A DNA stretch of 64,000 nt, filler included, from Sphacelaria rigidula (taxonomy: Eukaryota): assembly GCA_964200075.2 (NCBI GenBank). It is 9 parts of 9 records of this genome, joined end to end, with 100 filler letters (N's around TTAATTAATTAA, not from the genome) between each part and the next. Parts side by side here need not be neighbours in the genome. Positions count along the whole stretch, not along the records: positions 57,013 to 64,000 come from CAXNAA020017065.1; 8 more parts are not named here. One strand, given 5' to 3'. Made by a program: the position numbers and the translations under genes. Below are positions 3,160-63,549 of this stretch, in pieces; the stretch's first letter is position 1, and the number at the start of each line of letters is the position of its first letter. Below the pieces are notes generated by a model, which did no database searches, was not told the DNA's origin, and was given only the letters and a program-made list of their open reading frames with translations.

Positions 3160-3240
3160 CGTGCTCCGTCCCGATATTGTAGGAATGCGAGGTCAATGGT
3201 CTTATGACTATGGCATGCATGATCATGAGTACACCCCTTC
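3160..3240 (+). mobile_element. Short 3'-end fragment of a sister subfamily of the C-tailed LINE
   Basis: GTGCTCCGTC..GATGCGAGGTCAATGGTC..ATGACTATGGC..ATGAGTACACCCC aligns with the LINE 3' end at 54620-54690 (minus) and with 11745-11825 (minus). Confidence 0.55.
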
Positions 3241-7027: not shown

Positions 7028-7127
7028 NNNNNNNNNNNNNNNNNNNNNNNNNNNNNNNNNNNNNNNNNNNNTTAATTAATTAANNNNNNNNNNNNNNNNN
7101 NNNNNNNNNNNNNNNNNNNNNNNNNNN
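7028..7127. other. Artificial scaffold linker (44N-TTAATTAATTAA-44N); identical linkers at 14155-14254, 21282-21381, 28409-28508, 35535-35634, 42661-42760, 49787-49886, 56913-57012
   Basis: Identical 100-nt spacer carrying stops in all six frames. Intervening segments are 7027, 7027, 7027, 7027, 7026, 7026, 7026, 7026 nt, i.e. size-sorted scaffolds. Confidence 0.98.
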
Positions 7128-14076: not shown

Positions 14077-15203
14077 ATTAACCCTTTTGGGACCGCACCC
14101 CCACTAACACAGGGTTGACCCTGTGTTAGTGGAATAATAAAAAATAAGTCTTCGNNNNNNNNNNNNNNNNNNNNNNNNNNNNNNNNNNNNNNNNNNNNTT
14201 AATTAATTAANNNNNNNNNNNNNNNNNNNNNNNNNNNNNNNNNNNNNNNNNNNNCCACGCGTGTACTTTTTCCAAGTGAATATTGATGCCGATTCAGCAG
14301 GTGACCTACTCTCGCGGTCTGACGGTCAAGTCCTCCTACGGAGCTTGGGGGGGGGAGATACTTTCGCTCTGTGTTACTCTTTCGTATCTTCCCTGCAATA
14401 GAGAAATGCGACTTCAGCCCCATTTTAGTGTTGAACCCCAAAGTTTAAAATCGGCTGTTACATGTAGAGATGCAAGTTGGATAAACGTCGCTATCTGCTC
14501 AAACGCGGGCAAACTACGTGATCATATAAAGTTCGAATGCTTTATATATAGAATATCAGGAGATTTCCATGCCGGTTGGTAATCCCGAACTCAGGTTACA
14601 TCACAAGCACAGCATGTATATTGCACAAGATATTACATATCATTTGGTAGCAGCACAAAACTACTTGTCGTAAGCCGCCCTCCCCAGCATGGCGGCCGTA
14701 CCACTGCAGCAGCTTGGCGGAAGTACTCGAAGTCGATTACCGCCGATCCCGCCGAAGCTAGCGCACTCACTGTTCATAATCCATCGATCATCGCGAGTTC
14801 AAAGTCATTATCCAGTTCAGAGTTCAAAGTCATTATGCAGCCGCCAAATTTGCTTCCCTACGGCAAGCCTACGGCCACAAGAACGGCAACTGACCCACCA
14901 AAACTCCTCGGTTTTGGGCTGCTCATGTCGAAGAGGACCCTACGTGATGCGATTGATCGTTTGATTCCGTATATTTGTAGAGAAAGAATGAGGTTTTTAC
15001 ACACAGCTGATGTGGTCATTTCCTCATTCTCGATTCCTTGGGGGGGAGGGGAGGGGGGGGGGGGGGGGGGGCCCTGGTGCGGGGACGTTCGCTTTGGGGG
15101 CCCCTTGGTTTGGTCCGTAGGGTATGGAAGGGGGAACGCACGGTTNNNNNNNNNNTGGGTTTTTGGTAGGGGGGGTGGGTGTGTTGGTTTTTGGGTGGTG
15201 TGT

Positions 15204-19331: not shown

Positions 19332-19562
19332 GTTGGTGCTATAGTTTGTTCGAAGTTTCAAAAGTTTCTGAGTAATTTCTCATCATCCCAAGTGGTGAAC
19401 TGACGTCGATTTTTTTAGGTCGGGCATCACGCCTGAAGAGGGGTGGGATGAGTATTGGAGTGACTATTATAACTTCCCTTCCGGGCGGGATGCTTCGATG
19501 CTTCCGTAGATATGCAATGCCCCTCCCTCCCAAAAAATTGCCCAATACCACCCACCTGGAGG

Positions 19563-19763
19563 TTAACCCTTGAACCGCGAGGTTATTCTTCTGTTGAATC
19601 GGCATCAATTAGAAAAGTATGCATGATCCAGAAAGACTAATCTCACGGTCTAAGGGTTAACCCTTAGAGCGCGAGATTAGTCTTTCTGGATCATGCATAC
19701 TTTTTTTTCACTTGAGATTGATGCCGATTCAACAGAAGACTAACCTCGCGGTCCAAGGGTTAA
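19563..19763. mobile_element. Inverted dimer of a piggyBac-type mini-MITE: TTAA-[19567-19656]-TTAA-[19661-19759]-TTAA
   Basis: Three TTAA sites. Both units start CCCTT and end AAGGG, and unit 2 is the reverse complement of unit 1. TTAA TSD and CCCT/AGGG termini are piggyBac hallmarks. Confidence 0.85.
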
Positions 19764-19857
19764 GCTGGTTTGTACCATTTGACGATCACACACGGACAAA
19801 AAACGAGGGTGCTTTTTACCCTCTGCACAATCTTTCAATCTTCCCCACCCACAGACC

Positions 19858-23493: not shown

Positions 23494-23918
23494 AACAGCG
23501 GATTCTCAAAAATGGGGTTTACCAAAAAAATGGGGTTCGACTCAATGACAGTGATTTCCCTGACCTAAAGTCATGGTAAATAACTTTCATATGAACGACC
23601 TCATCCCTCCCGACCTCCCTAAAACTATTTCGGGGGATTTCTAGCCTTCCGTTCCCTCAAAGGGTATGTAGGAAAGCACATTTTTACCCCGATTTCGGGG
23701 TGAAAAAAGGGACGTTTCTTAACCCAAAAATCGCGCTTTCGCACTTATCCTTCGAGGAAACGAACGGCTGAAAACCGCCCGAAATAGTTTCAGGGGGGTC
23801 GGGAGGGATGAGGTCGTCCATACGAAAGCTATTTGTCATGACTTTAGGTCAGAGAAATCACTACTTTTGAGTTGTACCTCATTTTTTTGTTCAACCCCAT
23901 TTTTGAGAGTCCGCTGTT
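23494..23918. mobile_element. Foldback MITE with ~145-bp inverted arms
   Basis: AACAGCGGATTCTCAAAAATGGGG...GACCTAAAGTCATG...CGACCTCATCCCTCCCGACC is mirrored by GGTCGGGAGGGATGAGGTCG...CATGACTTTAGGTC...CCCCATTTTTGAGAGTCCGCTGTT. Confidence 0.8.
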
Positions 23919-26635: not shown

Positions 26636-27395
26636 CCCGAAAAATCTCAGCGGGAACGGTGCTATACGACGTTTGAGCCATTTGCGGCCGGATAACAATG
26701 AATCTGAACACATGATGACTGGTAGGAATAGAAAATCTACGACGTACACTAGGTGATATATATATTTCGTTTTCCTTAACGGGAATACAGGTATCCCGGG
26801 GAAAAGTGTGTCTCATCCCCTCCCCAAGTACGCGGAGGGTCATAAACAAACAGTCAGCGCCCGTTACACATGAAAATGGCGATGTCCCGTCACAGGCTGG
26901 AGGCATCGTTCGGGCGTACTTATCCCATCCTTCTGCTTTATAACCCCCCGCCCCTCCCCCTCTGAGAACAACCAACGTACAAGATAACACCCCCCCCCAC
27001 CCCCAACACCCCCACAACACAAAAGGCAAANNNNNNNNNNGGGCGTTCCTTCCCCACCCTCCTGCTTTATAACCCCCCCCCCCCCCTCCTCGGAGAAAAA
27101 TCAACGTACAGTATCCCCCCCCCCCCCCCGAAAATCTTTGCGGGAAAGAGGTTATTTCATCCGACGTTTGAGCCATTTGCGGACGGACCACAATTGATCT
27201 AGATACTTGACCGGTACCTACGAAGGATTACTATACATATCCTGTTGTGACTAAATAAATATACATTCCGTTTTTCTTAGCGCCGGAATATAGCTACACC
27301 GGGGAAGATATTGTACTCTTACATCCCCCCTTTCAGTACGTGCTGGGGTCATAGCCTACCGTCAGGACCTGTCAAATACGAAAGGCGCTGTCCCC
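26636..27395. repeat. Diverged direct duplication with ~490-bp spacing
   Basis: CGACGTTTGAGCCATTTGCGG and downstream sequence occur at ~26667 and ~27163; a 10-N gap lies between them. Confidence 0.55.
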
Positions 27396-54436: not shown

Positions 54437-54600
54437 CAATCACCAAGCGCGAAGCGCCGTGGTGTGTTCGGCGAGTCCCATGAAGGATGAGCTGCATCCT
54501 GCTAAGATTGTTCCGCCCGAAGCGTACTAGCTATCTTGCATTTAGATGGCAGCCTCCAATGAGTTGCTTCATTTTCTAGTATCGCCTCTTCCAGAGATAT

Positions 54601-56840
54601 GGTGGTGGTGGGGTGGGGGGGCGCGCGCTTATTTATTGCTTGCCTCAGTCGTTTGACCATTGACCACGCATCCCTTTCGAGACGGAGCACCGTTCCTACT
54701 CCTAATAGAGACACCTTCAACATCTCGGTGCTCATCACGTTTATTCCATACACTACAAAACAACATTTTACATATCTTATCCCCGTCCTGTTTTGCCGTC
54801 TCTGGCTACCATTCATTCCCTGGTATACCCTTCGTTTTCTCCCTACTGTCTAATGCATCAAACGATTCCGTGCCACCTTCGTTCACGTTCCGCATTTTCC
54901 CCTCTAGCACGTCTCGTTCCTCCTCGTATAGTTCACATTCCGCCACTTCATGAGTTCCGCTCTCCATCGATTTGTCACCGAAGCAATTCTGTGCGTTTAC
55001 TTCCTCCTCCTCTCGACGACTGGTATATCTCTGTCTTCTTTCCGGCAGGTCCAGATCCCTCGCCCGAAATCGCAGTTTCAGATTTCGCCGCGTCCATTGG
55101 GGCCATGCAGGTATGTTTTCATCCCAATCCCATCTCTCGACCCCCCGTATATCTTCAGGTGTTCTTCCTCGTCTACCTTGCGTCTGAGCGCTCCCTTTTC
55201 CCTTATTTCGATCATGTCTCTTACTTTTGCCTTGTGCACCGCGCCTCCACCTATGGACAGAGTTTCGTCTTGATTTCCTCCTATCCCCTTCCATACTTTC
55301 TCGACTTGTTTATCCCACCTTATTCCAGCATTACCTATCGTAGTTTTTTTCCATACGGCCTTATCAACTGTAGCTGGCAATCTCTTCCTTTGCATATTCT
55401 TCACGCTACACTGTCATCGCAATTTCCTCATATCTCCATTCGTTTTGAGTGAGAACGTTTCCAAATATGCTCTCAGTGCTGAATTACTCGTCGTTATCGA
55501 GCATACAATTATCTTCTTTGCTGCTGCCGTCTGTGCTGTTTCCAATTCTTCTTCACCAACTCCACGTTCCCCTCCCATACTTCTCCTGCATATTCCAGCT
55601 TTGGCAACATCACGTTCATCACGATCCACCTCCTAATCCTAGTATCTGGCAGCGAGTCTCTGAGGATCACATCCAACCTGCCCACCTATGCCTTACCCTT
55701 TTTCTATTAGTTTATACATGTGTGTATCCCAAGTGCAGCTTAGTTGGATCTCTACGGCAAGGTATACATGCTGGTCTACGATCGGCAGTTCCTCTTCTCT
55801 CCACCTCCATTTGAACTCCACCGGATTTTTCTTATCTTCGTTACAGACGAGTACCGCGCATTTGTTGACGTTCGCTGTCATTCTCCATTTCCTGGTGTAT
55901 CCTAGCGCCGTTTTTTTGTTTCTGTGATCCTTTTGCTGTTTCTGATACCACCACAAAATTGTCTGCGAACATCAATCCTGACACCAGATCTTCACACATC
56001 TTGACTCCTCGCTTTGCTGCTTCTATTGCTATTATCAGGTCACTAATAAATACCTTGAACAAAGTGGGTGATGACATACATCCTTGTGCAACTTATGGTA
56101 AGATATCGAAATATTTCGATATTTCCCCGTCTAGCATCATGGCACTTTTGGCACATTCTGTTATTTTCTTCACCATTCTCCACATCCTTCCTCTGATCCT
56201 AGTTTCCCAGAACTTTTTGCACAGCCCATTTCTCCATACTGTGTCATAAGCCTTTTGCACGTCCAGAAAGAAACAGTACGTTGTCAGCCCGGTGTCTTTC
56301 CTATCTTGAGTAATCCTATCTAGTGTGTACACATGGTCTACGCAGCTACGGTTTGGTCTAAATCTTGCTTGTGCCTCGCTGATTTTCTCTTTTTTCTCTA
56401 GCATCGTTCCTACTCTTATCATTCAAAATCTTATAGAATCTTTCCCCTACCGTGCTCAGTAGCGTCATCCCTCTACAGTTTCCAGGGTCAGCCTTGTCTC
56501 CTTTTTTGAGGAGGCTGACTACTGCTTCTTCTCTCCACCTCTTGGGTTTATACTCGTTTTCCCACATCCAGCTATATAGTATGATCATCACGGTAATCAT
56601 TCCCTCTACCCCGTACTTCATAAGTCCACTCACCGTTTCGTCTGCCCCTGCTGCCTTTCTGTTCTTGAGTTTAGCTGCACACTCCTCTACTTCATCTCTG
56701 GTAAAATCTGCCTGCATTTCTTTGGGTCCGCAATAATCCCGTTTCAATGCCCCTACATTTGCCTCTGCTCACGCGTCGATTACTGTTTCGAGTTCCGTGT
56801 CGAACTCCATGTTTGTGTTTGGTTTTCCTAGTTTACGCAC
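54601..56840 (-). mobile_element. Decayed non-LTR retrotransposon (LINE, RTE/CR1-L2-like): reverse transcriptase plus C-terminal region, with frameshifts and stops
   Basis: RT motifs across frames: LKNRKAAGAD, LLKKGDKADPGNCRGMTLLS, QARFRPNRSCVDH, FLDVQKAYDTV, VAQGCMSSPTLF, LMFADN, NVNKC, YLAV. The 3' end is followed by a C-rich tail. Confidence 0.93.
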
Positions 56841-56912: not shown

Positions 56913-57014
56913 NNNNNNNNNNNNNNNNNNNNNNNNNNNNNNNNNNNNNNNNNNNNTTAATTAATTAANNNNNNNNNNNNNNNNNNNNNNNNNNNNNNNN
57001 NNNNNNNNNNNNGA

Positions 57015-57295
57015 GACGGAGCTAGAGGCATGACTTCTGCCTACCCCTTTGTCGAAGCGGTTCAAGCGGCGGTGAGGCCGTATGTAATAGACGGTAACGA
57101 ACTTGTTGTGTATAGGCAGCTGATCTCCTTCGCGGAGAACTACCCAGAACATGTGACGGAGCATGCAGCGGCTGCTGCGGCATTCAGAAAGGCGTGCTAC
57201 ACTACTGTACTTCATCTGCGGCACAACGCCCCTGCCGTTCGAAGAATATTTGCCGCGGGAAATCGCGGCCCACCCCGACCACGAAGGGCTGTGTG
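57015..57295 (+). CDS. Coding exon of an unidentified gene (5' end cut by the scaffold start)
   Basis: Frame open from the scaffold start: DGARGMTSAYPFVEAVQAAVRPYVIDGNELVVYRQLISFAENYPEHV...RRAV, ending at a TG|GTGAGG donor; protein-like composition. Confidence 0.45.
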
Positions 57296-58054
57296 GTGAG
57301 GTGATGGGGACTATCCAAGGCCCCTAGTGGCAGGCCTCGGTTGCCACATCCTGTTGAAAGCTTTCCTTTGCGACTCATATTACTTGATACACCTGTACAT
57401 AACCTGATGCACACAACACCCGAATCATGGTACAGTCAGTTTGTACCTCCACCTGAAAATAAATGATGAAACTGAAACTTTCGGTCTTCATCTAAACCTG
57501 CCGTTACATATATACGTTGGTTTTTAGCAACATGAAGCCACTATTTCCTGCATATACAGGACACGTCATTCCCAACCAGCCTCGGTGGTCGTTCTGGGGG
57601 CCCAGTCCCAAAAGGGTTCATGTACCATTCGCGGGAATAGATGCGAACAGACGGCGAGTGTTCAGCGTAGAGCTCCCGCCGGTATGTTGGCTATACTCCC
57701 ACATGGCGTTTACATGTTTTCTCCAGTATTCTTACGGCCGATATCGCTTCGTGCACTGGGCGAAGACTGGCTCGGTCTCTCCATAGGAGACACGGTCATG
57801 CGTGTTCCCTGTGCCTCTCGGGAGGTTTCGTCTCCACTTCAACCCCTTGTACCTTGTACGAACGCGCGCCGAGACCGAGGCTCTCATTCTCTTTTGGACA
57901 GCGCACAGGCATTTTGGTACGTCATCCCGCTAGAGCACACCACTATTCCCAACGATGCTAGGCTCGCGTCACAGAAGTTGATGGGAACAGATATACCATT
58001 AGTCGGACAGCATTGCTGGTGCACTAGCTCAGCAAGTATCCTCTCCCCTCCCTT

Positions 58055-58172
58055 CGTTGGAGGTGTCTCTATTAGGAGTAGAACTGGTGCTCCGTCTCGA
58101 ACGGGATGCGTGGTCAATGGTCAATCGACTAAGGCAAGCAACAAATGAGTACGCCCCCCCCTCCTCCCTCCC
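58055..58172 (+). mobile_element. LINE 3'-end fragment with C-rich tail
   Basis: GGAGGTGTCTCTATTAGGAGTAGAACTGGTGCTCCGTCTCGAACGGGATGCGTGGTCAATGGTCAATCGACTAAGGCAAGCAACAAATGAGTACG followed by C run; CCCTCCCTT on both flanks. Confidence 0.85.
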
Positions 58173-58186
58173 TTTGCTGCCCGTGC

Positions 58187-58545
58187 GCCTGCTTTACGTC
58201 AAACACCGGATGATTCTTCAGAAAGATGGGAGAGTGCCACTCACCCCGGAGACGAGCTGTCTGAACAACGCCCGAGCATGGCTCTCCCCCAAACCACCGC
58301 GACTGCGGTTAACCAAGTCTCGGAGAGTCCCTCCGTCTTGGTAGTTCATCACGATGAACAGCACTGTTGCTGTTCATAGTGATGAACTACCAAGCCGGAG
58401 GGACTCTCCGAGACTTGGTTAACCGCAGTCGCGGTGGTTTGGGGGAGAGCCATGCTCGGGCGTTGTTCAGACAGCTCGTTTCCGGGGTGAGGTGGCACTC
58501 TCCTATTTTTCTGAAAAATCGTGCGGTGTATGACGTAGAGCAGGC
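58187..58545. ncRNA. Candidate long hairpin RNA locus: ~177-bp inverted repeat with 4-nt loop
   Basis: Arms 58187-58363 and 58368-58545, loop CTGT, 11 differences and an 84-bp perfect stretch. The inverted repeat is certain; transcription is not shown. Confidence 0.5.
58368..58486 (+). pseudogene. Ser/Thr protein kinase exon fragment (subdomains IV-VIa); mirror copy at 58245-58363 (minus)
   Basis: LFIVMNYQ(A/D)GGTLRDLVNRSRGGLGESHARALFRQLVSG followed by a GTGAG donor resembles CAMK-group L.IVMEY..GG.L.D......L.E..AR..FRQ.VS. No acceptor site or other kinase exons in the scaffold. Confidence 0.75.
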
Positions 58546-58902
58546 AACTCGTTTCCGGGGTGAGTAGGATCATTGCTTAGACGTGTAGAGCATCTCTGTA
58601 ATGCTTGAGAGGACCTCGTGCGGAGTAGACCGCATCGGAATCTGAATATCATCCCTATCCTTAGGGTTAGGGCTACACATGTGTATATGCCATCCTTTTA
58701 TTGCAACTTTTACCATCCTTGGACACGAGATCGTAAGTCTGAGGGAATCAACCCACATCTGCCGCGATATGTTGCCTAGTACTTCCCCTGTCCCTTAAGT
58801 GGGGAACTAGTTGGGGCGCAGATCGAATCTCCCGAACGTGGGCGCGCTTTCCGTGTTATAGTTGAGATCATTCGAAAAATGAAAGAGAAGGGATGCTCAC
58901 AG

Positions 58903-58975
58903 AATTGATTGATTGATTGATTATCTCACATTAGCTGATTGCAACAATCCAGCCCGTGGTCAGGAGCAGCAAAAA
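58903..58975 (-). mobile_element. 3' end of another retroposon with (TCAA)n tail
   Basis: Reverse complement CTGACCACGGGCTGGATTGTTGCAATCAGCTAATGTGAGATAATCAATCAATCAATCAA. Confidence 0.4.
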
Positions 58976-60376
58976 ATAAAACCAGAATAATGAAAGAAAT
59001 AAGAAGGAAGGAAACCGGAGAAGACAAATGCAGTGGCCTCATTAAGGAAAGAAGAAGGGAAGCAGCGATAACAACAAAACAACACCACCAGCAAAACAGC
59101 AAGAATCTACTGTAGGACGCATTGCATACACAGTTTCGGGTTAGAATTGGCCCGATTTTGGCCGATTTTGGCCATTTTCGTGCTGGACATGAGCGACAAC
59201 CTCTACCAAAGTGCCTTTGGATGGGGCATTGCTAGCTTGGCCTATGTTCATGAATTTGGCTGAAACAAAAAATGCCTCACCTACGTCTGTCGCCTAGGGC
59301 CGTTTTTTTGTTTTTGGCCCCCCGTAATGAGGGCGAAATTCGGGCGCTTCGCGGTCCGAATGATTAGTTTTGGCCGTTGGGCCATATGATGGAAATGGAT
59401 ACCCGTAAGAATAAAGTGCGAGGTTTAACTCATCAAGGGCCAACGGAAACCGTGGAAATACGAAGACACAAACCGGACACGGTCACAGTGTTACGCCCAG
59501 TTTAGTGTCACGTTTTTCATCACCACCCCCGAAACGCGACTTGATGGAGCAAATTAAGTTGACAGGGCAAAGTAATGACAACTATGGTGATGGATAGCTG
59601 TAGTACCTATCCTACACTACCCCTCCGTTGAAGTCTGGTCCAATTCCATCCAGTACAGCACACGAACGATCGACGGATGACCGGGAAAAAAGCCGACGAA
59701 ATCTATACAAGCCCAAAAGCCATTTTCCAATATGGCCTACCTACACGCGATCGCAGATAACTCGCGCTGCACGAATGGCAGCCAGCTGAAACTCAAGAGT
59801 CAGGTAGTAATCGCTAATAGCCATCGTTTAACATCAAAGTTGTATCAATTAGTTGTCGGGATCGCGGGTAAATTGCAGCAGATGAACCTTACTGTACGTT
59901 GACGTTTGTAGCTACGGCAAGGGTATGCGCAGCCGCCACGTCGAGGGCTGATAGAGATGCGTCTCAACTTCACAGAGCAATTTGATTTGTCTCTGCAGCT
60001 GCTGTGTGTATGGAGGTATTGCCATCTCGGCGGGGGGTGTTGGGACACATGAGTTGCGCTGGAAAAGCGTATCAGATACTCCTGAGTACCAAGAAAGCCG
60101 ATATCCAAACTAAGCCAGCGGCAATTGCGCCGCGTTTAGGTGCGTTTGTTGTCGGAGATGTCTTCTCCCACACTCCTTCATGGAAACAACAGTGTTGCCC
60201 ATCAGCAGAAAATATAGTTCAAACCTGTGCATGCCTTTATAGCTGCGGTGGCGTGCGAGGTCGCTGCCCAAAACATAGCGTACAAACACGCGCATACTGT
60301 CGTTAGCGAGGCCGTGACCCCTCCGAGTCTAAGGTTAGTCCTCATGGTGAACAAACGAGGCCAAAAAACTACTGTA

Positions 60377-63152: not shown

Positions 63153-63549
63153 AACGGGCAATTCTATAAAATGAGGTTGTACGATCAGTGCCTTCCCCGT
63201 ACTTTCAGCGATGGTGCCCCATGATGTTTTCGTCGGCCTAATGCCCCTCCATCGCGTAGATACTTCTTCTGCACATTTTACCGAATCTGTGAGCTTACAG
63301 CGCTGACCGAAACCGTCGTTTCCCCTGATATGACTCCCCTCAGAAAAAACCAGGGAAAATGATGGTTACTGGCAGCGCTGTATATTCTCACAGAGTCGGT
63401 AAAATCCGCTCAAGAAGTATCTACGCGATCAAGGGGCATTAGGCTGACAAAAAGGTCATTGGGCACCATCACTGAAAGTGTGGGCAAAGCACTGTTTTGG
63501 GCTTGAATCTCATTCCATCGAACAACCTCATTTTATAGAATTGCCTGTT
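63153..63549. mobile_element. Foldback MITE with ~140-bp inverted arms
   Basis: GGCAATTCTATAAAATGAGGTTGT...GCCTAATGCCCCT..ATCGCGTAGATACTTCTT is mirrored by AAGAAGTATCTACGCGAT..AGGGGCATTAGGC...ACAACCTCATTTTATAGAATTGCC. Confidence 0.8.

Follow-up and report, generated by a model that had tools for sequence, protein, structure and literature searches.

A kinase-derived 177-bp hairpin in the genome of Sphacelaria rigidula, probably formed by fold-back inverted duplication

The hairpin and its surroundings

The window analysed here is a stretch of 64,000 nt of DNA from Sphacelaria rigidula (assembly GCA_964200075.2), made of nine parts of nine records joined end to end with filler letters between them, and all the positions are given along this whole stretch. 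A near-palindrome of 359 nt was located at 58187-58545, in which two arms (58187-58363 and 58368-58545) flank a loop of 4 nt. The features of this locus are the following:

58056..58180, + strand: 5'-truncated LINE 3' end (58056-58161) and C-rich tail, separated from the left arm by 7-25 nt; present about 10 times in the window
58187..58239, - strand: left arm, outer part; inverted copy of a 54-nt non-coding ("intron") stretch, paired with 58492-58545
58240..58363, - strand: left arm, inner part; carries, reverse-complemented, GTGAG (58240-58244) and a 119-nt kinase coding piece (58245-58363)
58364..58367, no strand: spacer or loop CTGT, 4 nt, covered with 0 differences by a contig of sequencing run X2
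58368..58486, + strand: right arm, sense kinase coding piece, subdomains V-VIa, LFIVM...QLVSG
58487..58545, + strand: right arm, GTGAG followed by the 54-nt non-coding stretch; GTGAG is a putative donor or V-R codons
58541..58564, + strand: third copy of the exon end with GTGAG, a direct repeat of 58468-58491 that reads RQLVSGV
58904..59040, no strand: high-copy repeat starting with (TTGA)n, at the right end of a low-copy island; without a second copy in the window

The repeat search resolved the arms into an inner pair (58240-58363/58368-58491) of 124 nt, 98% complementary across a 4-nt gap, and an outer pair (58187-58240/58492-58545) of 54 nt with 87% complementarity. The 177-nt left arm was compared with the reverse-complemented right arm (178 nt) by global alignment and then by a pair-by-pair walk, and 11 differences were detected, namely 10 substitutions and one 1-nt bulge. 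These are unevenly distributed, in such a way that 3 fall within the 119-nt coding part and 8 within the outer 59 nt (3/119 vs 8/59, Fisher p = 0.0068), and the longest perfect duplex, of 84 bp, pairs 58252-58335 with 58396-58479. Six of the differences are transitions, five of which give G-U pairs if the + strand is RNA, a strand bias that is not significant (two-sided p = 0.22). At the protein level a single residue distinguishes the arms, D in the left one replacing the A of the right one. Compared with 58468-58491, the third copy of the exon end has 22 of 24 positions identical, with 17 nt exact at 58548-58564. An initial annotation of this DNA had described two arms of about 177 bp around a 4-nt loop, 11 differences with only 3 of them exonic, an 84-bp perfect duplex, five of six transitions as G-U pairs on the + strand, and a third copy of the exon end and donor; every number given there was reproduced by the repeat search, the alignment and the pair-by-pair walk.

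The window around the hairpin is gene-poor and repeat-rich. Among 134 open reading frames of at least 105 aa, a single one gave a Pfam match above the cut-off, a reverse transcriptase at 56096-56422 (- strand), and two more gave weak matches below it. The LINE 3' ends, of around 80-106 nt with a C-rich, poly-C-like tail, occur in about 10 copies in 64 kb, and these copies confirm that a LINE 3' end lies just upstream of the hairpin on the + strand, as had been proposed. Other LINE 3' ends were found near 3161, 11748, 28351, 28619, 35438, 41813, 49738, 54352 and 54616. Reverse transcriptase fragments (RVT_1, E 3.4e-9) with a matching LINE C-terminal and 3' end were seen on the - strand at 56096-56768 and 54505-54849, and the 3' end of this - strand LINE shows 88.7% identity over 106 nt to the LINE piece beside the hairpin. 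The depth of the LINE 3' end in runs X1, X2 and X3 is 4-5 orders of magnitude above that of the flanks, and joints that go back by 65-81 nt suggest that the 3' unit forms tandem arrays elsewhere in the genome. A 20-nt direct repeat (58040-58059 and 58160-58179, 16/20 identical) brackets the LINE piece beside the hairpin; it is a possible target-site duplication, or merely two C-rich tails.

On the other side, (TTGA)4 opens the high-copy repeat at 58904-59040, with a change in depth and loose contig ends at 58904. As high-copy repeats bound both sides, the hairpin lies in a low-copy island of around 740 nt. Another low-copy stretch, 57712-58055, precedes the LINE piece. Some contigs in X1, X2 and X3 also join approximately 58161, in the LINE tail, to approximately 58904, with short sides of 19-27 nt; these joins are probably repeat-to-repeat adjacencies at other loci.

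Three other long inverted repeats were detected in the window (23494-23918, 63186-63494 and 19560-19766), with arms of 192, 108 and around 100 nt, arm identities of 78-85% and spacers of 0-107 nt. Those at 23494-23918 and 63186-63494 are without another copy in the window, and a coding origin is not apparent for any of the three. With three more long inverted repeats in the window, inverted duplication thus looks recurrent, and its products mostly decaying, in this genome. The kinase hairpin does not have the profile of a MITE or foldback transposon, as no second hairpin copy was found in the window and the depth on its arms is like that of unique flanks. The GC content is around 50%, and the CpG observed/expected ratio is around 0.9-1.1 in most 2-kb bins, without CpG depletion. 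At a fixed period of 7,126-7,127 nt, from 7028-7127 to 56913-57012, eight pairs of 44-N runs flank TTAATTAATTAA; they look like inserted masks and not biology, and two runs of 10 N (15146-15155 and 27031-27040) resemble ordinary assembly gaps.

The presence of this DNA in sequencing reads was also studied. The stretch 58150-60150 was found in six listed runs of three studies, one of these runs being labelled "algae metagenome" and none being recorded as RNA, and the contigs of four runs were aligned on 57100-60150. Run X5 contains only 0.17 of the sampled words. Run X2 belongs to a different study from X1 and X3, and one run may be the assembly's own sample. A 120-nt contig of X2 spans 58306-58425 with 0 differences, thus covering 58 nt on either side of the loop. 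The variants of the right arm continue into the unique flank without a difference in X1 (58450-58930) and X2 (58396-58929), and likewise in the contigs of X3 (58450-58571 and 58568-58930). Among the contigs listed, none bridges the outer left junction (58161-58200). The depth on the arms is within the range of the unique flanks, depth not being equal to copy number, and a second copy at 90% identity or more was not apparent among the depth and variant rows listed for X1, X2 and X3 over 58187-58545, which is a weak test. One 135-nt contig of X3 matches the right arm (58370-58479) unchanged and then carries 25 letters unlike the loop side; it may derive from the parent gene as present in the X3 sample, or from a different junction. 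From run X6, presumed to be RNA, a single 151-nt contig was obtained (58530-58680, depth 2.3) and none on the stem, which has no bearing on expression.

Kinase origin of the arms

The right arm translates in one frame as LFIVMNYQAGGTLRDLVNRSRGGLGESHARALFRQLVSG, and the reading frame is open in both arms. When compared alone with PF00069, this 39-aa piece gave an E-value of 0.054 and 13.3 bits, under the cut-off of 31.7 bits, over profile positions 73-110. The kinase identity is thus based on a homologue and not on Pfam. This homologue, P0001, is a partial protein of 132 aa from Sphacelaria rigidula, the one of 18 candidates that passed in a search of longer proteins, and is 85% identical to the piece over 40 residues (E 2.5e-12). 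It extends into the HRD motif region (…SGVCYLHQRRIIHRDIK…) and matches the catalytic domains of MARK and AMPK at about 1e-22, on which grounds the fragment is assigned to subdomains V-VIa of a CAMK-like kinase. In a tblastn search, P0001 aligned with both arms, the right one at 58370-58495 (E 6.3e-18) and the left one at 58361-58239 (E 3.7e-17), in such a way that both halves of the hairpin are homologous to a protein-coding gene, as in an origin of the type discussed below for Arabidopsis proto-MIRNA loci. The kinase coding sequence that the initial annotation had read in the arms is therefore genuine, as judged by the homology with P0001.

The first residues with kinase homology, LFIVM, coincide exactly with the palindrome centre, so that the turning point lies within the exon or where the exon starts. 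The rest of P0001 was not found in the 58 kb upstream or the 5.4 kb downstream within the window, where the other tblastn matches have E > 0.1; the claim that no further kinase exon accompanies the hairpin thus holds for the window searched with P0001. A complete catalytic domain, with HRD, DFG and activation loop, is not present, the piece covering profile positions 73-110 of 263 with no further exon in the window.

At its other end, the homology with P0001 and P0026 stops at GTGAG. Taken as splice donors, the GTGAGG of the arms is good and the GTGAGT of the third copy is better. GTG AGG also encodes V-R, and P0026 has …SGVRYLH… at exactly that place; because of these V-R codons the exon end is not fixed, and it could fall up to five bases further on. 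The reading of GTGAG as a donor followed by an intron is then plausible and ambiguous. From a GTGAG donor and a retained intron, a duplication at the DNA level had been concluded: the duplication at the DNA level is supported, and the donor and intron are only plausible, given that GTGAGG can be read as V-R. The sequence after GTGAG is wholly different in the arm (58492…) and in the third copy (58565…), so the two continuations must go back to two templates or to an additional rearrangement.

Two relatives of P0001 were recovered. P0026, a paralogue from S. rigidula of 93 aa, is 81% identical to P0001, and P0027 is 56% identical to it; besides these, all the matches are at most 43% identical to P0001, and no full-length parent-like protein was found among them. 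Both P0001 and P0026 are short gene models, themselves truncated, which break off after DFG…CGEYA and continue with a common non-kinase tail, …LFRRR. As this tail is identical in the two proteins, it suggests that dispersed or duplicated truncated copies of the kinase exist in S. rigidula. The kinase gene appears to be lineage-specific, and its host a brown-alga-like genome. A viral origin, as an endogenous giant-virus gene, was also considered, and no relative was found among viral contigs.

Formation of the hairpin and alternative readings

We consider it probable that the locus is a young, single-copy inverted duplication, produced by fold-back or template switch, of a dead fragment of a CAMK-like Ser/Thr kinase gene, without demonstrated function. 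According to this proposal, the right arm, the third copy of the exon end and the downstream sequence would be the remains of a dead copy of the kinase gene. At a distance of a few bases from the break, a broken DNA end or a nascent strand would have reversed direction along its own template, and the left arm would be the 177-nt copy so made, with the 4-nt spacer left between. The arms would have subsequently drifted apart to their 11 differences, and, if the locus was ever transcribed across both arms, the 177-bp stem could be cut by Dicer to give siRNAs as a by-product.

Several observations support this proposal. Fold-back inverted duplications with short spacers at breaks are described for yeast and human in the accessible text of PMC11724301, PMC3907307 and PMC10766183. 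The two kinase copies lie head to head across a spacer of a few bases that independent reads cross (X2, 58306-58425, 0 differences), the fragment is single and local, transposon ends are absent, and no second copy occurs in the window. We infer that the right arm is the original one, as both differences that can be polarised make it the older: it carries A and not D, as does P0001, and T at 58480, as does the third copy. The nearby LINE end and the third copy of the exon end with its different continuation speak against a plain fold-back, and neither of them is explained by the model. The uneven distribution of the differences could reflect selection for pairing in the exon-derived stem, or correction from arm to arm near the centre. 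The structural half of the first reading, a duplication at the DNA level of a kinase fragment in inverted orientation that gives a long foldable stem and is present in independent short-read contigs, is maintained here.

The capability of the hairpin to fold was assayed for 58187-58545, as the initial annotation had proposed. The predicted folding energy of the + strand RNA is -360.9 kcal/mol, against a shuffle mean of -132.4 with sd 5.8 (z = -39.5), and that of the - strand RNA is -340.2 kcal/mol, with z about -40 for both strands; for the + strand as DNA it is -218.4. None of 100 shuffles folded as well as the hairpin, either as RNA on either strand or as DNA, so that the fold is far beyond chance on both strands. 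The advantage of the + strand over the - strand, 20.7 kcal/mol, comes from the five of six transitions that are G-U pairs on the + strand. The locus is thus a long, near-perfect inverted repeat foldable within one transcript, and a transcript across both arms would be expected to form a long, almost perfect dsRNA, a natural substrate of Dicer.

This leads to a tentative alternative, in which the locus is an hpRNA gene: a + transcript across both arms would form the 177-bp stem, and the siRNAs of around 21 nt processed from it would act in trans on the mRNAs of the parent kinase family. We regard this as possible, without expecting it to be the case. In Drosophila, hpRNAs are siRNA loci made of long inverted repeats. 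Long inverted repeats are also a source of hpRNA and siRNA according to the accessible text of LIRBase (PMC8728187) and of Tarver 2015, and brown algae possess Argonaute and process hairpins into 21-nt small RNAs, as reported in the accessible text of PMC4513859 and PMC5381526. In favour of an hpRNA are the near-perfect long stem, with its 84-bp perfect duplex in the exon-derived part, the fewer differences of that part (p = 0.0068), the better fold of the + strand with its G-U pairs, and the related kinase genes in the one brown alga returned by the protein search. Against it, neither a promoter nor a host gene is recognisable in the window, the G-U bias does not reach significance, the closest relative known shares only 85% identity at the protein level, and a second copy at 90% identity or more was not seen among the contigs listed, this being weak evidence. 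Furthermore, the accessible text of the Ectocarpus and Saccharina surveys reports miRNA loci without similarity to protein-coding genes (PMC4513859, PMC5381526), which weighs against a silencing locus derived from such a gene. The more ambitious version, in which a newborn hpRNA gene arisen by fold-back duplication would give siRNAs that tune the lineage-specific CAMK-like kinase family, appears quite doubtful to us.

The proposal of a nascent miRNA gene agrees poorly with the published criteria. For brown-alga miRNAs, the accessible text of PMC5381526 asks for a terminal loop no shorter than 8 nt, excludes stems belonging to an extended hairpin that gives other small RNAs, and expects reads of miRNA and miRNA* with 2-nt 3' overhangs and a precise 5' end; many Ectocarpus candidates on extended hairpins are classed there and in the accessible text of PMC4513859 as siRNA sources, not as miRNAs. 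The kinase hairpin has a loop of 4 nt and an extended stem of 177 bp, so it fails on the loop and on the extended hairpin and is not a miRNA gene now. The matches with Rfam miRNA families are all below the gathering score: MIR5200 reached 58 bits on one strand and 57 on the other, where 70 is required, and mir-606 reached 51, where 80 is required. As MIR5200 matches both strands and does so below the threshold, the Rfam matches reflect structure only. In a literature search, no small-RNA work on Sphacelaria was found, which is not proof of absence.

An improbable alternative is that the hairpin was made by a retroelement, the kinase piece being carried or copied by the adjacent LINE and the inverted copy being a by-product of retrotransposition. 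Two routes could be involved, either 3' read-through of a LINE inserted antisense in a kinase intron or a reverse transcriptase snapping back on its own cDNA, and even jointly they seem improbable. Only 7-25 nt separate the LINE 3' end and its C-rich tail from the left arm, which, read on the strand of the LINE, is kinase sequence in antisense. Self-primed second-strand synthesis gives a tiny loop, such as the one found here. By our own estimate, the chance of a LINE end within around 25 nt of the arm is roughly 1-2% at around 10 copies per 64 kb; a LINE end so near is thus unlikely by chance, and a retroelement-linked origin retains some weight for this reason. However, kinase sequence does not follow any of the further LINE 3' ends that were aligned from the window, the possible 20-nt target-site duplication (16/20) would make the LINE piece a separate, ordinary insertion, and the right arm continues into the third copy of the exon end, which is not predicted by transduction.

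It is very improbable that the hairpin arose in the assembly from a long read that was chimeric or had folded back. Long-read libraries are known to produce artefactual palindromes with tiny loops. Such an artefact would be near-perfect, whereas the arms differ at 11 positions, and the right-arm variants among these differences are reproduced by short-read contigs of X1, X2 and X3, which disfavours a long-read origin. As an X2 short-read contig from a second study also crosses the loop unchanged, an artefact is unlikely, and the hairpin is real DNA.

Finally, it is scarcely credible that the right arm serves as a functional exon in a kinase gene with its other exons outside the window. The frame is open in both arms and GTGAG (GTGAGT in the third copy) suits a splice donor, but the homology sets in at the palindrome centre, no kinase exons occur in the 58 kb upstream or the 5.4 kb downstream in the window, and the locus is a low-copy island flanked by repeats.

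Meaning and comparison with known systems

With the fold-back duplication of a dead kinase fragment as our preferred reading, and neutrality as what we infer for the hairpin, a silent locus would be one more among the millions of catalogued eukaryotic long inverted repeats, and would serve chiefly as an example of a small fold-back duplication that is clean and can be dated. A transcribed one would represent the very first step, in brown algae, of the route that leads from inverted duplication of a target gene to regulatory small RNAs. Brown algae are an independently multicellular lineage in which that route is reported to be absent, and with a transcribed locus the birth of silencing loci would become testable in them. 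Should the hpRNA reading be true, this would be the first such case in brown algae, a lineage with miRNAs of independent origin, and selection on the stem would have left its first trace in the lower divergence of its exon-derived part. The locus would matter more if small RNAs were found, as these would contradict the published picture of brown algae.

The nearest parallel among miRNA genes comes from Arabidopsis, where Allen et al. in 2004 reportedly traced proto-MIRNA loci of the MIR161/MIR163 type to inverted duplication of target genes. The kinase hairpin is like them in its inverted arms, in the homology of the arms with a protein gene over their whole length and in the near-perfect pairing, as expected for the earliest stage. 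It differs in its loop of only 4 nt and in being a hairpin known from DNA alone. The host lineage also differs, as the accessible text of the brown-alga surveys is without a gene-derived miRNA locus (PMC5381526). With the miRNA loci of Ectocarpus and Saccharina themselves, as described in the accessible text of PMC4513859 and PMC5381526, it shares a genomic hairpin and the expectation of 21-nt products, and it departs from them in the small loop and in the extended hairpin, both of which fall outside the criteria of PMC5381526.

The hpRNA or long-inverted-repeat siRNA loci of Drosophila, and those of plants in the accessible text of LIRBase (PMC8728187), resemble the kinase hairpin in having a gene-derived stem of more than 100 bp that is able to target a gene by complementarity. 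Membership in that class rests on Dicer-dependent small RNAs, whereas the kinase hairpin is known from its sequence. The spacer of typical transcribed hpRNA genes is also far longer than the 4 nt found here.

The last comparison is with fold-back inverted duplications (PMC11724301, PMC3907307 and PMC10766183, in their accessible text). The published events are either very short (around 5-34 bp) or very large (kb to Mb), in contrast with the 177 bp of this hairpin. In the head-to-head arrangement, the spacer of a few bases, the local origin and the absence of transposon ends, the kinase hairpin is like them.
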